A stretch of 63,891 nucleotides of DNA, the filler included, from Thermodesulfobacteriota bacterium (GTDB lineage: Bacteria > DASVDK01): the NCBI GenBank assembly GCA_036381125.1. It is 7 parts of 7 records of this genome, joined end to end, with 100 filler letters (N's around TTAATTAATTAA, not from the genome) between each part and the next. Parts side by side here need not be neighbours in the genome. Positions count along the whole stretch, not along the records: positions 4,318 to 23,449 come from DASVDK010000138.1; 6 more parts are not named here. One strand, given 5' to 3'. The notes under the pieces are model-generated. The model made no database searches, was not told the origin of the DNA, and saw only the letters and a program-made list of their open reading frames with translations. Below, piece after piece: positions 4,218-59,638 of the stretch; positions within the stretch are counted from its first letter, which is position 1, and each line of letters begins with the position of its first letter. Made by a program: the position numbers and the translations under genes.

Positions 4218-4317
4218 NNNNNNNNNNNNNNNNNNNNNNNNNNNNNNNNNNNNNNNNNNNNTTAATTAATTAANNNNNNNNNNNNNNNNNNNNNNNNNNN
4301 NNNNNNNNNNNNNNNNN
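4218..4317. other. Artificial contig spacer
   Basis: 100 nt of N with TTAATTAATTAA linker. Confidence 0.99.
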
Positions 4318-6371: not shown

Positions 6372-7879
6372 TGGAGGGCCTCCTCCTCGGCTTCCAGGTC
6401 GCGCTGAGCGCCGGGAACCTGCTCTACTGCCTCCTCGGCGCGCTCCTCGGCGTGCTGGTCGGCATCCTGCCGGGGCTCGGTCCGGCGGCGTCGATCGCGA
6501 TCCTCCTGCCGGCGACGTTCACCCTCGGGCCGTCTTCCGCGATCATCATGCTCGCGGGCATCTACTACGGCGCCATGTACGGCGGCTCGACGACCTCGAT
6601 CCTGGTCAGGCTGCCGGGGGAGGCGGCGTCCGTGGTGACCTGCCTCGACGGCTACGAGATGGCCCGGCAGGGGCGCGCCGGCGTCGCCCTCGGCATCGCG
6701 GCCATCGGCTCGTTCGTCGCCGGGACGCTCGGCGTCGTGGCGCTCGGCCTCCTCGCCCCTCCGCTCGCCGCCCTGGTCCTCCTCTTCGGGCCGATCGAGT
6801 ACTTCGCCCTCATGCTCCTGGGCGTATGCCTGGTCCTCGGTCTCGCCCAGGGCTCTCGGGTGAAGGCGGCCGTCATGGCCGCGCTCGGCTTCCTGCTCGG
6901 CCTGGTCGGGCTCGATCCGGTCACCGGCGAGCAGCGATTCACGTTCGGCATCCCGGCGCTGATCGACGGGATCGGCTTCGTGCCGGTGGCGATGGGGCTC
7001 TTCGGGATCGCGGAGGTGCTGGCCCACGCCGCCGGCGCCGCCGGCGGCCCCGAGGTGGTGGCCAGCCGGATCGGACGCCTCCTGCCCGACCGGCAGGAGC
7101 GCGCGCGCGCCCGCGGCCCGATCCTGCGCGGCAGCCTGCTCGGCTTCCTGGTCGGCCTCCTTCCCGGCGGCGGCGCGGTCCTGTCCTCGTTCCTGAGCTA
7201 CGCCCTCGAGAAGCGGCTCGCGCCCGATTCCGAGCGGTTCGGGCGGGGCGCGATCGAGGGGGTCGCCGGGCCGGAGGCGGCGAACAACGCCGCAGCCTCG
7301 GCGTCGTTCATCCCCATGCTGGCCATGGGGATCCCGTCGAACGCGGTCGTCGCGTTGATGCTGGCGGCGCTGATGATCCACGGGGTGACGCCGGGACCGC
7401 TGCTCGTCAGTCAGCACCCGGACATCTTCTGGGGCGTCATCGCCAGCATGTACGTCGGCAACGCCATCCTGCTGGTCCTCAGCCTGCCGCTCATCACGCT
7501 CTTCGTGCAGATCGCCCGCGTGCCGTACCGGCTGCTGGGTCCGCTCGTCGTCCTCTTCTCCATGGCGGGCGCGTACAGCCTGAACAACGATCCGAGCGAC
7601 GTGCTGATCATGGTCCTGGCCGGCGTGGTCGGCTTCGTGCTGCGGTCGTTCGCGTTCGATCCGGCGCCGTTCGTCCTGACCATGGTCATCGCCCCCATGA
7701 TGGAGATCGCCCTCCGGCAGGGGCTCGTCGTCGCCCGCGGCGACCTCTCGCAGTTCTTCGGCCGCCCGCTCGCCGCGCTCATGTGGCTCGCCTCGGCGGC
7801 GGTCCTGCTCGGGCCGGCGGTGGGCCGGATCGTCCGGAGCGCCCGCGCCGACCGGCGGGCCAGCGACGGGGCCCGGTGA
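6371..7879 (+). CDS. Tripartite tricarboxylate transporter permease TctA
   Basis: [29 protein letters not shown] coupling. Confidence 0.92.
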   Translation: MEGLLLGFQVALSAGNLLYCLLGALLGVLVGILPGLGPAASIAILLPATFTLGPSSAIIMLAGIYYGAMYGGSTTSILVRLPGEAASVVTCLDGYEMARQGRAGVALGIAAIGSFVAGTLGVVALGLLAPPLAALVLLFGPIEYFALMLLGVCLVLGLAQGSRVKAAVMAALGFLLGLVGLDPVTGEQRFTFGIPALIDGIGFVPVAMGLFGIAEVLAHAAGAAGGPEVVASRIGRLLPDRQERARARGPILRGSLLGFLVGLLPGGGAVLSSFLSYALEKRLAPDSERFGRGAIEGVAGPEAANNAAASASFIPMLAMGIPSNAVVALMLAALMIHGVTPGPLLVSQHPDIFWGVIASMYVGNAILLVLSLPLITLFVQIARVPYRLLGPLVVLFSMAGAYSLNNDPSDVLIMVLAGVVGFVLRSFAFDPAPFVLTMVIAPMMEIALRQGLVVARGDLSQFFGRPLAALMWLASAAVLLGPAVGRIVRSARADRRASDGAR

Positions 7880-9836: not shown

Positions 9837-11327
9837 GTGGAGGCCCTGGGCGCCCTCGCGCAGGGGTTCGGCGTCGCGCTCCAGCCGATCAACCTGGTCT
9901 TCGCGTTCGTCGGCTCGGTGCTCGGCACGGCCATCGGCGTGCTGCCGGGGATCGGCCCGGCGCTCACCATCGCGCTGCTCCTGCCGGTCACGACCAGGAT
10001 CGCGCCCACGGGCGCCTTCATCATGTTCGCCGGCGTCCTCTACGGCGCCATGTACGGCGGCTCCACGACCTCCATCCTCCTCAACACGCCTGGCGAGGCC
10101 GGCTCGATCATGACCGCGCTCGAGGGCAACCGCATGGCGCGCGCGGGGCGCGGCGCGGCGGCGCTGGCCACGGCGGCCATCGGCTCCTTCGTGGCCGGCA
10201 CCCTCGCGACGCTGGCGCTGACCTTCGCCGCGCCGCTCATCGCCGAGCTGGCCTTCGTGTTCGGGCCGGCCGACTACTTCGCGCTGATGGTCCTCGCCTT
10301 CACGTCCGTCTCGGTCGTGCTCGGCGCCTCGCGCGTGCGCGGCTTCGTCTCCCTCTTCATCGGCCTCGCCATGGGGGTCATGGGGATCGACGCGCAGACC
10401 GGCCAGGCGCGGCTCACGTTCGGCTCGCCCGAGCTGCTCGACGGAATGGAGCTGACGACCGTGCTCGTCGGGCTCTTCGCCGTGGGCGAGACCTTCTACG
10501 TGGCGAGCCGGTTCTCGAGCCAGCCGCCCCAGATCAACCCGCTCGCGGGCGGGGCCTGGCTGACCCGCGAGGACTGGAAGCGGTCGTGGCTGCCGTGGCT
10601 GCGCGGCACGCTCGTCGGCTTCCCCATCGGGGCGCTGCCGGCGGGCGGCTCGGAGATCCCGACGTTCCTGTCGTACACGATCGAGCGGCGCCTCGCGAAG
10701 CGGCCCGACGAGTTCGGGCGGGGCGCCATCGAGGGCGTGGCGGGGCCGGAGGCGGCCAACAACGCGGCCGCGGCCGGCATTCTCGTGCCGCTCCTCACGC
10801 TGGGGCTGCCGACCTCGGCGACGGCGGCCATCCTCCTGGCCGCCTTCCAGAACTACGGCCTGCAGCCGGGGCCGTTCCTGTTCATCAACTCGGCCGACCT
10901 CGTCTGGGGCCTCATCGCGTCGCTCTACATCGGCAACGCCATGCTCCTGGTGCTGAACCTCCCGCTCGTGGGCCTCTGGGTGCGGCTCCTCCTGCTCCCA
11001 CGCAAGTACCTCTACGGCGGCATCCTGGTCTTCGCCATGATCGGCGTCTACGGCGCGTCGAACTCCTGGCTCGAGCTGGTGCTCATGGTGGTCGTCGGCC
11101 TCGTCGGCTACGTGATGCGCGTCTACGACTTCCCCATCGCCCCGGTCCTGATCGGGCTCATCCTCGGGCCGCTTGCGGAGACGCAGCTGCGCCGGGCGCT
11201 CGCCATCAGCCAGGGCGACCCGACCGTGCTCGTCTCGTCGCCCGTCTCGGCGACGATCCTGATCCTGTCGGCGCTCGTCTTCTTCCTGCCGGCGCTGCTG
11301 AAGCGGCTGCGCGCGGCCGCGTCGTAG
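9837..11327 (+). CDS. Second TctA permease
   Basis: [35 protein letters not shown]. Confidence 0.93.
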
Positions 11328-18480: not shown

Positions 18481-18556
18481 GGGGTCAGGTCTTTCCATTT
18501 TCCGCGGGGTCAGGTCTTTCCATTTTCCAGGCTGGAAAACGGAAAGACCTGACCCC
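18481..18556. repeat. REP-like cluster: two direct and one inverted 23-bp units
   Basis: GGGGTCAGGTCTTTCCATTTTCC at 18481 and 18506; inverted copy (1 mismatch) at 18534-18556. Confidence 0.9.
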
Positions 18557-19875: not shown

Positions 19876-21714
19876 GTGGGGCCCTACGTCGTCCAGTTCC
19901 TGAACGGACTGGCCACCGCCTCCTCGCTCTTCCTGGTAGCCGCCGGGCTCTCGATCATCTTCGGCGTCACCCGCATCGTCAACTTCGCGCACGGCGCCTT
20001 CTACATGCTCGGCGCCTACGTCGCGGTGTCCCTCGTGCCGCACCTCGGCGGCGGAGCCGCGGGGTTCTGGGCCGCCGTGCTCGCGGCGGCGCTCGTCGTG
20101 GGGGCGCTCGGCATCGTCATGGAGCGGCTCCTCCTGCGCCGCGTCTACGGGGCGCCCGAGCTGTTCCAGCTCCTCGCGACGTTCGGGGTGGTCCTGGTCG
20201 TGCAGGACGCCGTGCTCCTGCTCTTCGGCCCGGAGGAGCGGCTCGGCCCGAGGGCGCCCGGACTCGAGGGCGCGGTGTCGGTGCTCGGGCGCGCCTTCCC
20301 CGCCTACAGCCTCTTTCTCATCCTCCTCGGGTTCGCCGTCGCGACCGCGCTCGCGTTCCTCTTCCGGCGGACGCGGTGGGGCATCCTCGTCCGCGCGGCC
20401 ACCGAGGACCGCGAGACGGTGGCGGCGCTCGGCGTGAACGAGGCCTGGCTCTTCACGAGCGTGGTCGCCCTCGGCACGGCGCTCGCCGGCCTGGGGGGCG
20501 CGCTGCAGCTTCCGCGCGAGCCGGTTCACCCCGCGATGGACGTGCAGGTCGTCGCCGAGGCGTTCGTCGTCGTGGTGGTCGGCGGCCTCGGCAGCCTCTG
20601 GGGGGCCTACCTCGCCTCCGTCCTGATCGGCGAGCTGCACGCCTTCGGCATCCTGGTCTTCCCCGAGATCACGCTCGTCCTGGTCTTCCTCGTCATGGGG
20701 ATCGTGCTCGTCGTCCGGCCCTCCGGGCTCCTCGGACGCCCGGAGACCGCGGCGCCGGGCCGGGCCTCGGCCCTCGCCGCGCCGCTCCTGCTGCCGCCGT
20801 CCCGGCAAGCGGTCGCGGTCGAGGTCGGTCTCGTCGCCCTCCTGGCGGTCGCGCCGCTCACGCTCGACGCCTACGCCCTCGGCGTGCTCTCGGAGGTCTT
20901 CGTCTACGCGCTCTTCGCGGCGAGCCTCCACCTTCTCATGGGACCGGGCGGGCTCGTCTCCTTCGGCCACGCCGCCTACTTCGGCCTCGGCGCCTACGGG
21001 GCGGCGCTCGCCGCCACGCGGCTCGGCCTGTCGATGCCGGTCGCGTTGGCCGCGGGGATCGCCCTGGCCTTCGCGGGGGCGCTCCTCTTCGGCCGATTCG
21101 CGGTCGGCCTGGGCGGCGTCTACCTGGCGATGCTCTCCCTCGCCTTCGCCCAGATCGCCTATGCCGTGGCCTTCCAGTGGGTGCCGGTGACCGGCGGCGA
21201 CAACGGGATCCTCGGCGTCTGGCCGCCCGGCTGGGCCGCCACGCCGGCCGGCTTCTACTACGTGGCGCTGGCGCTCTGCGGCGGGGCCGTCCTCTTCTTC
21301 CGGCGGGTCGTCTTCGCGCCGTTCGGCTACGGGCTCCGGGCGGCGCGAGACGCGGCCGCGCGTGCCGAGGCGAGCGGCATCGACGTCCGCCGCCAGCGGG
21401 CGCTCGCCTTCGCCCTGGCCGGCGCGGGCGCAGGGCTCGCCGGCGCGCTGTACGCCTTCCTCAAGGGGAGCGTCTTCCCGGAGTCGCTCGGCATCGCCAC
21501 CTCCCTCGACGCCCTCGTCATGGTGCTCCTCGGCGGCGTCCACACGGTGGCCGGGCCGGTCGTGGGGGCGGCGGTCTACAAGGTGCTCCAGGTGATCCTC
21601 GCGACCTACACCGACTACTGGCGCCTCGTCGTCGGCGCGACGCTGGTGGCGCTCGTGGTCGCCTTCCCGCAGGGCCTGGTCGGCTTCGCCGTCGGTCGGC
21701 TGCGGGCAGGCTAG
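19876..21714 (+). CDS. Fused LivH-LivM ABC permease
   Basis: GLSIIFGVTRIVNFAHG and GLVSFGHAAYFGLGAY, TGGDNG. Confidence 0.9.
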   Translation: MGPYVVQFLNGLATASSLFLVAAGLSIIFGVTRIVNFAHGAFYMLGAYVAVSLVPHLGGGAAGFWAAVLAAALVVGALGIVMERLLLRRVYGAPELFQLLATFGVVLVVQDAVLLLFGPEERLGPRAPGLEGAVSVLGRAFPAYSLFLILLGFAVATALAFLFRRTRWGILVRAATEDRETVAALGVNEAWLFTSVVALGTALAGLGGALQLPREPVHPAMDVQVVAEAFVVVVVGGLGSLWGAYLASVLIGELHAFGILVFPEITLVLVFLVMGIVLVVRPSGLLGRPETAAPGRASALAAPLLLPPSRQAVAVEVGLVALLAVAPLTLDAYALGVLSEVFVYALFAASLHLLMGPGGLVSFGHAAYFGLGAYGAALAATRLGLSMPVALAAGIALAFAGALLFGRFAVGLGGVYLAMLSLAFAQIAYAVAFQWVPVTGGDNGILGVWPPGWAATPAGFYYVALALCGGAVLFFRRVVFAPFGYGLRAARDAAARAEASGIDVRRQRALAFALAGAGAGLAGALYAFLKGSVFPESLGIATSLDALVMVLLGGVHTVAGPVVGAAVYKVLQVILATYTDYWRLVVGATLVALVVAFPQGLVGFAVGRLRAG

Positions 21715-21745
21715 GCTCGGCCGTGAGCGATCCGGCGAGCAGCAG

Positions 21746-22013
21746 CCGCGAGCCGTTGCCGGAGGCGCGGCGGCAGCCGCGCCGTGAGGCGAGCGGCCCC
21801 CGGTCGGTTGGCGCGCCGCAGGCGCGCCGAGGAGCGGAGGCCCGGCTGGGCCGGGCCGGAGCGGAAGCCGGCCGCGAGCCGTTGATGGAGGCGGCGCCGG
21901 GAGGCGCCGCAGAGGCGAGCGGCCACCGGGTGGAGCGCGGCGCAGCCGCGCGTGGAGCGGAGCGCGGACGTGCTCCGCGCGGAGCGGAAGCCGGCCGCGA
22001 GCCGTTGATGGAA
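21746..22013 (+). repeat. Structured tandem repeat (126- and 123-bp units, three hairpins each)
   Basis: Anchor CCGCGAGCCGTTG at 21746, 21872, 21995; homologous to 37047-37377. Confidence 0.9.
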
Positions 22014-22742
22014 GCCCGCGGGCTCGCGAAGCGGTTCGGCGGCGTCGAGGCGGTACGCGGCGTCGACCTCGCGGTACGCCGCGGGGAGGTCGCGGCCCTG
22101 ATCGGCCCCAACGGCGCCGGCAAGACGACCTGCTTCAACCTCCTCACGGGACAGCTCCGGCCGGACGCCGGCCGGGTGTGGCTCCGCGGCCGCGACGTGA
22201 CCGGCAGGCCGCCGCACGATCTCGCGCGGCTCGGCGTCGGCCGCACCTTCCAGGTCACGGCGGCCTTCGCCTCGATGACCGTCCGCGAGAACGTGCAGGT
22301 CGCCTGCCTGGCGAGGCACCGCCGGCTGACCGGCCTGGTGAGGCCGGCCGCGGGGCGCTTCGCCGCCGAGGCCGACGCGCTCCTCGAGCGGGTCGGGATG
22401 GCGGACCAGGCCGGCCGCGCGTGCGGCGTCCTCGCCTACGGCGACCTCAAGCGGGTCGAGCTGGCGGTGGCGCTGGCGCACGAGCCGGACCTGCTCCTCA
22501 TGGACGAGCCGACGGCTGGGCTCGCGCCGCCCGAGCGGCACGCGCTCATGGCCCTGGTGAGCGCTCTCGTCGCGGACCGCGGGCTCACCGTGCTCTTCAC
22601 GGAGCACGACATGGACGTCGTCTTCGGCCACGCCGCGCGCGTGCTCGTCATGCACCGGGGCGAGATCATCGCCGACGGCCCGCCCGACGTCGTGCGGGCC
22701 GATCCCCGCGTGCAGGCCGTCTATCTCGGGGGCGGAACGTGA
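22008..22742 (+). CDS. LivG-type ABC ATP-binding protein (may start at GTG 21723, including the repeat)
   Basis: GPNGAGKTT, LAYGDLKRVELA, DEPTAG, EHDMD. Confidence 0.9.
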   Translation: MEARGLAKRFGGVEAVRGVDLAVRRGEVAALIGPNGAGKTTCFNLLTGQLRPDAGRVWLRGRDVTGRPPHDLARLGVGRTFQVTAAFASMTVRENVQVACLARHRRLTGLVRPAAGRFAAEADALLERVGMADQAGRACGVLAYGDLKRVELAVALAHEPDLLLMDEPTAGLAPPERHALMALVSALVADRGLTVLFTEHDMDVVFGHAARVLVMHRGEIIADGPPDVVRADPRVQAVYLGGGT

Positions 22743-23449: not shown

Positions 23450-23549
23450 NNNNNNNNNNNNNNNNNNNNNNNNNNNNNNNNNNNNNNNNNNNNTTAATTA
23501 ATTAANNNNNNNNNNNNNNNNNNNNNNNNNNNNNNNNNNNNNNNNNNNN
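23450..23549. other. Artificial contig spacer
   Basis: N run with linker. Confidence 0.99.
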
Positions 23550-32311: not shown

Positions 32312-32424
32312 TGCCCGGCTGCACGGGCCGGTGGCGAGACCAACCGGCGCGCGCCGACCGCCGGCAGACGGTCACGGCGACGCGGTGGACCGGGCAGAGC
32401 CGCTCGAGGCGGCAAACGACGCGT

Positions 32425-32478
32425 GGAAAATGGAAAGACCTGACCCCATGGAAAATGGAAAGACCTGACCCCGTGGAA
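32425..32478. repeat. REP-like cluster, same 23-bp family
   Basis: GGAAAATGGAAAGACCTGACCCC at 32425 and 32450 (25-bp period) plus partial third; between convergent genes. Confidence 0.9.
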
Positions 32479-36328: not shown

Positions 36329-37036
<708 letters not shown>

Positions 37037-37046
37037 CGGCAGTTTC

Positions 37047-37377
37047 CTCCAACGGCTCGCGGCCGGCGTCCGCTCCGGCCGGGGTGAACCCGGCCTCCGC
37101 TCGTCGGCGCGCCTGCGGCGCACCAACCGCCTGAGGCCGCTCGCCTCTGCGGCGCCTCACGGCGCCGCTTCCGTCAACGGCTCGCGGCCGGCCTCCGCTC
37201 CGGCCGGGGTGAACCCGGCCTCCGCTCCTCGGCGGCCCTGCGGGCCGCCAACCGCCTGAGGCCGCTCGCCTCGGCGGCGCCTCACGGCGCCGCCTCCCTC
37301 AACGGCTCGCGGCCGGCCTCCGCTCCGGCCGGGGTGAACCCGGCCTCCGCTCGTCGGCGCGCCTGCGGCGCGCCAAC
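37047..37377 (-). repeat. Structured tandem repeat (125-bp period), runs to contig end
   Basis: CAACGGCTCGCGG at 37050, 37175, 37300; same family as 21746-22013. Confidence 0.92.
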
Positions 37378-37477
37378 NNNNNNNNNNNNNNNNNNNNNNN
37401 NNNNNNNNNNNNNNNNNNNNNTTAATTAATTAANNNNNNNNNNNNNNNNNNNNNNNNNNNNNNNNNNNNNNNNNNNN
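37378..37477. other. Artificial contig spacer
   Basis: N run with linker. Confidence 0.99.
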
Positions 37478-39524: not shown

Positions 39525-39601
<77 letters not shown>

Positions 39602-39693: not shown

Positions 39694-39769
39694 TGGTAGG
39701 CGGAACAGGGATCGAACCTGTGACCCTCGGCTTGTAAAGCCGATGCTCTCCCAGCTGAGCTATCCGCCC
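39694..39769 (-). tRNA. tRNA-Val(TAC)
   Basis: GGGCGGATAGCTCAGCTGG..TTTACAA..GTTCGATCC..CCA. Confidence 0.97.
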
Positions 39770-48340: not shown

Positions 48341-48440
48341 NNNNNNNNNNNNNNNNNNNNNNNNNNNNNNNNNNNNNNNNNNNNTTAATTAATTAANNNN
48401 NNNNNNNNNNNNNNNNNNNNNNNNNNNNNNNNNNNNNNNN
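48341..48440. other. Artificial contig spacer
   Basis: N run with linker. Confidence 0.99.
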
Positions 48441-52718: not shown

Positions 52719-52818
52719 NNNNNNNNNNNNNNNNNNNNNNNNNNNNNNNNNNNNNNNNNNNNTTAATTAATTAANNNNNNNNNNNNNNNNNNNNNNNNNN
52801 NNNNNNNNNNNNNNNNNN
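52719..52818. other. Artificial contig spacer
   Basis: N run with linker. Confidence 0.99.
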
Positions 52819-53949: not shown

Positions 53950-54032
53950 TGGTGCGAGAGGTGGGACTCGAACCCACAAGGTTTCCCACCAGATTCTAAG
54001 TCTGGCGCGTCTACCAGTTCCGCCACTCTCGC
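53950..54032 (-). tRNA. tRNA-Leu(TAG)
   Basis: GCGAGAGTGGCGGAACTGGTAGACGCG CCAGA CTTAGAA TCTGG variable arm GTTCGAGTC..CCA. Confidence 0.95.
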
Positions 54033-59538: not shown

Positions 59539-59638
59539 NNNNNNNNNNNNNNNNNNNNNNNNNNNNNNNNNNNNNNNNNNNNTTAATTAATTAANNNNNN
59601 NNNNNNNNNNNNNNNNNNNNNNNNNNNNNNNNNNNNNN
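59539..59638. other. Artificial contig spacer
   Basis: N run with linker. Confidence 0.99.

Follow-up and report, generated by a model that had tools for sequence, protein, structure and literature searches.

Several kinds of short repeat and leader have been described at or within transcribed genes. Repetitive extragenic palindromic sequences (REP/BIME, REPIN) are single palindromes of 20–40 nt, present in both orientations or as inverted pairs; they have an associated RAYT gene and can stabilise mRNA. The palindromic elements of Rickettsia (RPEs) lie within genes and contribute to the encoded proteins, and in bicistronic designs a short open reading frame (ORF) carries the Shine–Dalgarno (SD) sequence of the downstream gene and ends at an overlapping stop and start codon, making initiation less dependent on context. 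Mycobacterial interspersed repetitive units (MIRUs), in the passages of one source that describe them (PMC3184786), measure 40–100 bp, number 40–50 copies, are transcribed polycistronically, occupy sites that are found both empty and filled and contain GC-rich internal inverted repeats. Here, we describe a repeat of ~125 nt that forms two arrays, one of them before a livG-type gene, in a 63,891-nt stretch of DNA (the window) from a Thermodesulfobacteriota bacterium (assembly GCA_036381125.1). This repeat is probably a lineage-specific intercistronic element of the MIRU kind, unstable in copy number, transcribed within mRNA in the sense orientation and placed directly before start codons.

The nearest described precedent appears to be the MIRU, which an earlier interpretation of the window made from the DNA alone (the sequence-only reading) had not named. 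As far as MIRUs are described in the relevant parts of PMC12548453 and PMC3184786, the likeness lies in short repeats at tens of dispersed sites together with tandem arrays of variable copy number, in a position between operon genes and at start codons with a repeat-borne ORF whose ends overlap the adjacent stop and start codons by 4 nt, and in internal GC-rich inverted repeats and sites that are empty in one relative and filled in another (here C102 against L022, C223 against L011 and L031, and C177 against L005; C denotes contigs of the genome studied and L repeat loci in this genome or its sister). The present repeat differs in occurring in an unrelated phylum and in its unit of ~125 nt, as against the 40–100 bp given for MIRUs in those parts. 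It differs further in a conserved fold, with a long-range covarying helix and invariant strands, and in the many copies that stand in plain leaders without coupling. It may be called MIRU-like in functional kind, being set beside MIRUs by description and not by descent; as far as our literature searches reached, MIRUs are the only described elements with this coupling logic, and they are mycobacterial only. With REP and REPIN sequences the repeat shares the abundance of GC-rich extragenic palindromes inside transcription units, but its unit is composite and strictly oriented, and the RAYT-like gene of the genome is flanked by another repeat. Like RPEs, these palindromic repeats are able to lie in frame within annotated ORFs; their copies, however, border genes, and those in frame extend an ORF at its N- or C-terminal end. 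PMC12548453 mentions synthetic bicistronic designs and leaders with a short ORF from which ribosomes reach the next start; compared with such designs, the present example is natural, repeated and structured, and its relay role is predicted.

Range and placement of the repeat

An iterated nhmmer profile found 42 matches at 33 loci on 31 contigs of the draft genome studied here (G000; 382 contigs, 4.33 Mb, 73% G+C, 96% complete), several of them at contig ends. A covariance model of the repeat built in this analysis (R1) had 34 matches in G000 and 39 in G001, which together with G000 makes up its whole phylum in GTDB, and none in 59 other sampled genomes; BLAST over 41 genomes agreed with this range, bar two matches of 27–41 nt at chance level. 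An exact 27-nt motif from the anchor, the segment at which each unit ends, was found in a single metagenome-assembled genome in a set holding one genome for each of 185,579 species, and once in a metagenome collection, between two permease genes (DppB- and DppC-like by eye). At this metagenomic copy the upstream TGA lies inside the GTGA hairpin loop and a bridging ORF stops 4 nt before the next ATG. Rfam 15 at gathering scores gave no match to the repeat in the window, where it recognised only three tRNA genes, and at E ≤ 10 over 21700–22060 the best match had an E-value of 2.1 and 16.3 bits against a threshold of 40; a literal motif search of the literature returned nothing relevant. The repeat family is restricted to this lineage. 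The sequence-only reading had proposed an uncharacterised and non-autonomous repeat family, to be compared with Rfam; this view is supported, with 34 R1 matches in G000, far beyond the two arrays, and no Rfam match in either search.

Wherever it could be determined, the downstream gene is co-oriented with the repeat, at 29 of 29 such loci in G000 (of 33) and 19 of 19 in G001 (of 23); the probability of the 29 under random orientation is ~2e-9. Of the other G000 loci, three are unclear, including one co-oriented tRNA-Ala, and one lies at a contig end. Only head-to-tail arrays were seen at the loci of the two genomes, with no inverted pairs and no antisense copies relative to the downstream gene. 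At its 3′ end the repeat is near-constant, reading ...GGAGCGGAnGCCGGCCGCGAGCCGTTG, one to three bases, GGAG(G) and the start codon, and a copy ends in ...GGCCGCGAGCCGTTG, nnGGAGG and the start codon. Among the 25 G000 loci with an assigned start, the start codon lies 11–18 nt past the anchor in 14 and 30–65 nt past it in 4, while in the other 7 the anchor's own TTG or GTG is in frame, followed soon by an ATG in at least 4 of them. Since nnGGAGG trails every internal anchor of an array as well as the array ends, the ribosome-binding site of the downstream gene appears to belong to the repeat. As far as they could be read, the downstream genes are functionally unrelated; they include ABC ATPases (Pfam) and, by eye from their N-terminal peptides, PurB-like, L17-like and YbaB-like genes. 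The only copy seen before an RNA gene (L058; G000:C185:8106–8354) consists of a mini-unit (anchor, third hairpin, anchor) and a full unit, with tRNA-Ala(CGC) 5 nt past the last anchor.

Fold of the unit

The fold was assessed on a MAFFT alignment of 40 full units fitted to no structure (A2), from which 6 of 46 full units are absent, namely five that diverge strongly or contain large insertions (L031, L062, L046, L032 and L057) and one of the two identical L018 units. RNAalifold on A2 recovers two hairpins, H1 and H3, and a long-range helix, P2, in which GGCGAGCGGCC is paired with GGCCGCGAGCC around a tandem G.A and which encloses H3 and a further hairpin, H2. Both strands of P2 are identical in 33 of the 40 units, and six variants are compensated: an A-U pair (L023), a U-A pair (L029), single swaps (L030 and L008:1514) and double swaps (L045 and L070). 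The paired fractions on A2 are 92.2% for H1, 99.7% for P2 and 98.6% for H3, with changes on both sides at 17 of 32 pairs. Overall, 84.4% of cells are paired against 74.5% in shuffles and the covariation score is 0.223 against 0.061, and all five A2 measures lie above all 500 shuffles (0/500 reaching the observed value) and above all slid controls. H2 varies in length, so that pairing by column does not measure it (43% in A2 and 53–63% in A3, an alignment of 68 matches that was fitted to the covariance model and leans towards it), but when folded unit by unit it gives a hairpin of 7–11 bp in most parsed units. The 40 units contain 23 distinct versions of H1, 21 of H2 and 24 of H3, while the strands flanking H3, both with GAGCGGA, are invariant. 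Three units folded singly show this same architecture (z −2.7 to −4.3). As judged from the aligned copies, the fold of the repeat covaries. The three hairpins and the covariation of their stems beside fixed segments, as described in the sequence-only reading, are upheld, no shuffle of A2 reaching the observed values, whereas the conserved linker and anchor named there are not single-stranded spacers but pair as P2.

Within H1, P2 and H3, G.U cells outnumber A.C cells by 21 to 7, which favours the sense strand, and in 3 of 3 units folded the sense strand exceeds the antisense strand in fold stability by 8–12 kcal/mol. The H1 loop is of the GNRA type in 35 of 51 parsed units (GTGA in 14, GGGA in 10), H2 is closed by GCA, GAA or GGA triloops or by GNRA tetraloops, and the loops of H3 are U-rich (CUUG, UUCA, UUCG). 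These base-pair counts, fold energies and RNA-typical loops favour the sense strand, and thus mRNA, as the strand that folds. Several SD-like GGAG motifs lie between the hairpins. In some copies H3 contains ~30–40 nt extra (L031:42–206, L026:310–475 and L032:1441–1593 in G001, and L062:145–304 in G000:C314); a perfect 12-bp hairpin (CCCCACGGAACC...GGTTCCGTGGGG) is common to the three G001 insertions, so that a smaller element may be nested within the larger.

Reading frames and copy number at the loci

At array 1, on the plus strand, a fused branched-chain amino acid permease gene (19876..21714; 612 aa; Pfam BPD_transp_2 in two stretches, E 8.5e-67) ends at TAG 21712–21714, and the ATG of a LivG-type ABC ATPase gene (22008..22742) directly follows the last anchor. 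The array opens with a solo anchor, GCCGCGAGCCGTTG, a copy of the P2 3′ strand (21745..21758), and Tandem Repeats Finder reports it at 21745–22023 with period 123, 2.2 copies and score 336. Counting unit lengths from one anchor end to the next, unit 1 has 126 nt (21759..21884, its anchor ending at 21884), with an SD-like GGAGG at 21761–21765, H1 at 21764–21783 (loop GGCA), the P2 5′ strand at 21788–21798, H2 at 21810–21828 (loop GCA), H3 at 21840–21856 and the P2 3′ strand at 21870–21880; its minimum free energy (MFE) is −87.3 kcal/mol (z −2.71) and it is 97.7% identical to the orthologous G001 unit. Unit 2 has 123 nt (21885..22007, its anchor ending at 22007), with H1 at 21891–21910 (loop GGGA), the P2 5′ strand at 21914–21924, H2 at 21935–21951 (loop GCA), H3 at 21962–21980 and the P2 3′ strand at 21993–22003 (MFE −80.2 kcal/mol, z −3.82); it is missing from the G001 orthologue, and its closest relative is the C298 unit rather than the neighbouring unit 1.

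A GTG in frame with livG (21723..21725) lies 8 nt past the permease stop and, after this +8 gap, opens a 339-aa ORF that runs into livG without a stop; it is possible that it serves as the reinitiation start of a 95-codon leader. The stop-free frame through the units says little by itself, because the same frame is open from 19230 in DNA of 73% GC. In the G001 orthologue the permease gene ends with TGA, and this codon and the counterpart of GTG 21723 overlap as GTGA; one in-frame unit of 126 nt follows, where G000 has two, so the extension differs by 41 codons between the sister species. As unit 2 is an indel between species, the 95-aa extension is not a conserved protein segment; it has no Pfam family match, and ABC_tran begins at residue 17 counted from ATG 22008, as in the paralogous second ATPase, with BCA_ABC_TP_C at the C-terminus. 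The sequence-only reading had described both arrays and their stem variants correctly, had found units of 126 and 123 nt without a stop from GTG 21723 to the ATPase and had called for a comparison of livG orthologues, whose outcome, one unit against two, speaks against a conserved extension. Contigs of four DNA runs placed on the window are largely background from other organisms, as at the ATPase P-loop; one contig of run X4, 328 nt long, spans from 21705 to 22019, where 46 letters of its own stand in place of the 313 of the window. The summed depth of the contigs of these four runs is raised over 21833–21914.

Array 2, on the minus strand, is reverse-complementary to array 1, the arms being 86–89% complementary, and is reported by Tandem Repeats Finder at 37050–37377 with period 125, 2.6 copies and score 586. 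Its gene-adjacent unit (37050..37174; 125 nt; H1 loop GTGA; MFE −85.2 kcal/mol, z −4.32) gives a match of 109.8 bits and is 96% identical to the C365 unit. The second unit (37175..37299; 125 nt; H1 loop GTGA) is 98.4% identical to a unit before a gene on C167, an unrelated locus, and a partial third unit (37300..37377; model positions 43–118) is cut at the contig end at 37377/37378. The array precedes a second ABC ATPase gene (36329..37036, minus strand; ABC_tran E 3.7e-33) whose GTG start (37036–37034) lies 14 nt past the anchor, with GGAGGAA between (peptide VLRLEDVHTSYG). With units of 125 nt, the reading frame shifts from unit to unit.

Coding frames were judged from GC at the three codon positions, and 18 G000 junctions were scored, all with an upstream gene in the same orientation and a downstream gene that could be read. 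At 11 of the 18, the upstream stop is connected with the frame of the downstream gene by a strict path, one that admits only −4 and −1 overlaps; in each of these 11 the upstream gene stops at a TGA belonging to an NTGA motif in or beside H1. Bridge ORFs of 33–50 codons are found at C52, C59, C99, C153, C166, C167, C171, C214 and C343; at C174 an ATGA-started ORF passes in frame through the unit, and at C298 the ORF from upstream crosses 1.4 units before it stops, in overlap with the next start. When gaps of ≤10 nt are allowed, a path exists at 13 of the 18, adding C285 and the livG locus (C138). NTGA motifs are enriched, with 49 against 31.6 ± 4.9 in dinucleotide shuffles, none of 500 reaching 49. 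The stop/start overlaps in the repeat are directly observed. The unit frame lacks coding-type GC3 (0.85/0.74/0.81 against ~0.95 at the third positions of flanking genes), and the peptides encoded through the units seem unlikely to matter. A fixed three-frame stop 'funnel' in every unit was considered and rejected, as the stop frame relative to the anchor is not constant and few units (3 of 40) carry stops in every frame.

Orthologous flanks of G000 and G001 are mostly ~90–96% identical, and seven orthologous sites differ in the copy number or presence of the repeat. Unit counts in G000 and G001, respectively, are 2 and 1 at C138/L002, 1 and 2 at C285/L009, 1 and at least 2 at C214/L018, and 1 and 2 at C78/L026. 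Before a YbaB-like gene (by eye) at C177/L005, G000 has a 36-nt 3′ tail where G001 has three units; the ATGA junction of a permease and an ATPase gene (by eye) at C102/L022 holds no unit in G000 and 1.2 in G001; and at C223/L011+L031 G000 has none and G001 an array. Upstream protein length and downstream N-terminus are preserved at C102/L022 and C223/L011+L031. The 5′ arm of H1 is already in the empty site of C102 when compared with L022, whereas the other empty site (C223) is without it; at C308 the last codons and the stop of the upstream gene (RpoA-like by eye) form the H1 5′ arm and loop. For the G001 orthologues of the C153 and C308 loci, one contig ends at the repeat and the other search gave repeat matches only. 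Set against the features of a MITE (terminal inverted repeats and a target-site duplication of fixed length), the only inverted repeat in the unit is the internal P2 pair, which covaries as a helix. Orthologous arrays contain non-orthologous units, and units at unrelated G000 loci are 96–98% identical, above most orthologous flanks, which argues for recent copying between loci. Solo tails of 36–41 nt (the H3 end, a GGAGCGGA strand, the anchor and GGAGG) occur without a unit at C177:58772–58807, C153:3–40, C19:1203–1241, C300:13617–13657 and C343:34–69, and may be remnants of collapsed arrays; the C177 tail sits where G001 has its three units.

Explanations compared and their meaning

In the mechanism that we propose for a MIRU-like repeat, the ~125-nt unit runs from an SD-like GGAGG through H1 and a P2-closed domain, with H2, H3 and the invariant purine-rich GAGCGGA strands, to GTTG(A) and the next GGAGG. 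The H1 loop GTGA would act as a GTG start overlapping a TGA stop, and a ribosome ending the upstream gene at an NTGA inside the repeat would reinitiate there; a throw-away ORF of 33–50 codons or a short NTGA cascade would then pass it to the next start, and where no stop intervenes, as at livG, it would read in frame into the next protein. We infer that an insert would leave translational coupling intact because ribosomes are either relayed or read through. The repeat would supply the ribosome-binding site of the downstream gene, and its stable fold may also protect or insulate the mRNA. A stronger version, which we regard as unlikely, makes the P2-closed junction with its invariant GGAGCGGA strands a working RNA device, that is, a portable leader that recruits or hands over ribosomes, shields mRNA and spreads by an undescribed route targeting Shine–Dalgarno/start junctions, building H1 from the last codons of the upstream gene; it is prompted by the H1 arm in the empty site of C102 as compared with L022 and by the H1 of C308, formed from upstream C-terminal codons.

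Several observations weigh against the MIRU-like interpretation. Transcription, folding and reinitiation at the repeat are all inferred, and the G...A-loop hairpins are also stable in single-stranded DNA, so that a role at the DNA level is possible. Kinship among the copies inflates the shuffle statistics, and the higher values on A3 (87.8% paired, 29 of 31 pairs changed on both sides) come from matches fitted to the model. Five of the 18 junctions have no coupling path (C78, C308, C314, C329 and C376), several copies lie in leaders without a co-oriented upstream gene, and stops in all three frames are present in only 3 of 40 units. When 1 or 2 nt were deleted inside the repeat at strict-path loci, 101 of 192 trials kept the strict path, owing to two or three NTGA sites near the 3′ end that catch the other frames and shift them stepwise into the gene frame. 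By this control, selection on unit length modulo 3 is not demonstrable, and the relay lies in the consensus (anchor TTGA, GGAGG, H1-loop GTGA). Translation through a unit would also melt the covarying fold, and the two halves of the model may belong to different copies or different moments. Neither a constant nor a fixed-length target duplication was seen in three empty/filled comparisons, and no enzyme that moves the repeat was found. With two species and no outgroup, insertion and deletion are indistinguishable and the ancestral state is unreadable.

The alternative with the most in its favour is a cis-acting RNA module of the host (an mRNA stabiliser, processing site, ribosome standby platform or protein-binding leader), whose value to the cell would explain position and conservation and make mobility secondary. 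The six compensated P2 variants and the invariant single-stranded GAGCGGA strands flanking H3 would suit such a module, as would the favoured sense strand, the SD-like GGAG motifs between hairpins and the copies in leaders without an upstream gene and before tRNA-Ala. We nevertheless consider it quite unlikely, given that the downstream genes, recognised by eye apart from the ABC ATPases, are functionally unrelated as far as they could be read, that copy number differs at the same gene in the sister species, that orthologous arrays hold non-orthologous units and that neither an Rfam match nor a CsrA gene was found. The related idea of a CsrA sponge, suggested by the many GGA motifs, is unsupported, PF02599 having no match in the 96%-complete genome. 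By eye, an integron attC site does not fit, there being no inverse core at the 5′ end, and neither do a hammerhead core or the template and variable repeats of diversity-generating retroelements.

Spread as single-stranded DNA by a HUH (RAYT/TnpA) enzyme, as a REP/REPIN-like or IS200/IS605-derived element, was suggested as possible by the sequence-only reading and agrees with the GC-rich hairpins with G..A loops, with four Y1_Tnp matches in G000 (three above the Pfam cut-off) and with an anchor that often ends in TTGAT, which we take to resemble the target of one IS200/IS605 member. It is very unlikely: none of the four Y1_Tnp contigs carries the repeat, the loci include neither inverted pairs nor antisense copies, and the G.U/A.C ratio and fold energies favour the mRNA strand. 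The best RAYT-like gene (C227:2119–3183), encoding a 354-aa protein with Y1_Tnp and a weak DnaA-C-like tail, has a different repeat, of 25 nt, on either side in inverted copies, and a RAYT origin of the 125-nt repeat is disfavoured because this gene seems to pair with that other repeat. With ≤3 mismatches allowed, the 25-nt family (core GGTCAGGTCTTTCCATTTTCC) is matched 269 times across 111 contigs, in many cases by 2–3 copies in tandem; it occurs in the window at 18481–18528 (plus strand) and 32424–32478 and brackets the C227 gene at G000:C227:1991–3189, and gene and repeat together look like a classical REP/RAYT (REPIN) system. Least probable by far, to the point of being nearly discounted, is a genuine RPE-like coding insertion, by which LivG and other proteins would gain a peptide segment. 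The livG units of 126 and 123 nt, open in frame, the 126-nt unit of G001, the ATGA-started ORF of C174 and the upstream ORFs that run through units at C285 and C298 could be read in this way, but the extension changes by 41 codons between sister species, the X4 contig joins 21705 to 22019 with 46 letters in place of 313, coding GC3 is lacking, the units of array 2 change frame, and the extension has no Pfam match while the ABC domain begins at residue 17 of ATG 22008 just as in the paralogue. The sequence-only reading had likewise pointed to in-frame insertion into genes and to unit lengths that are multiples of 3; instead, the copies stand at gene starts or junctions, always in sense, the in-frame case at livG is one of several layouts, the path survives in 101 of 192 deletion trials and the units of array 2 have 125 nt. 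That interpretation is thus partly supported, being right on a structured non-autonomous repeat, wrong on the likely mobiliser and incomplete on the logic.

Elsewhere, the window consists of seven contig pieces of G000 joined by six artificial linkers, N...TTAATTAATTAA...N (4218–4317, 23450–23549, 37378–37477, 48341–48440, 52719–52818 and 59539–59638), and because these are artificial, gene neighbourhood across them is not real. The three tRNA genes are on the minus strand (39528–39601, 39697–39769 and 53953–54032). Two gene copies lie 3475 nt apart (6416–6715 against 9891–10190 and 7230–7513 against 10705–10988), in stretches that are 71–85% identical, as if a pair of membrane-protein genes had been duplicated in tandem.

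If the MIRU-like interpretation is right, the repeat would be a natural portable cassette of ribosome-binding site and relay ORF and might be put to use as a trial genetic part in high-GC hosts. It also breaks assemblies, many copies lying at contig ends, and misleads gene callers, livG being callable as 339 or 244 aa and several neighbours gaining termini encoded by the element. Repeats that preserve coupling would then not be a mycobacterial oddity: an unrelated and barely sampled phylum would have evolved or acquired its own version, one that is larger and has an unusually well-supported fold.

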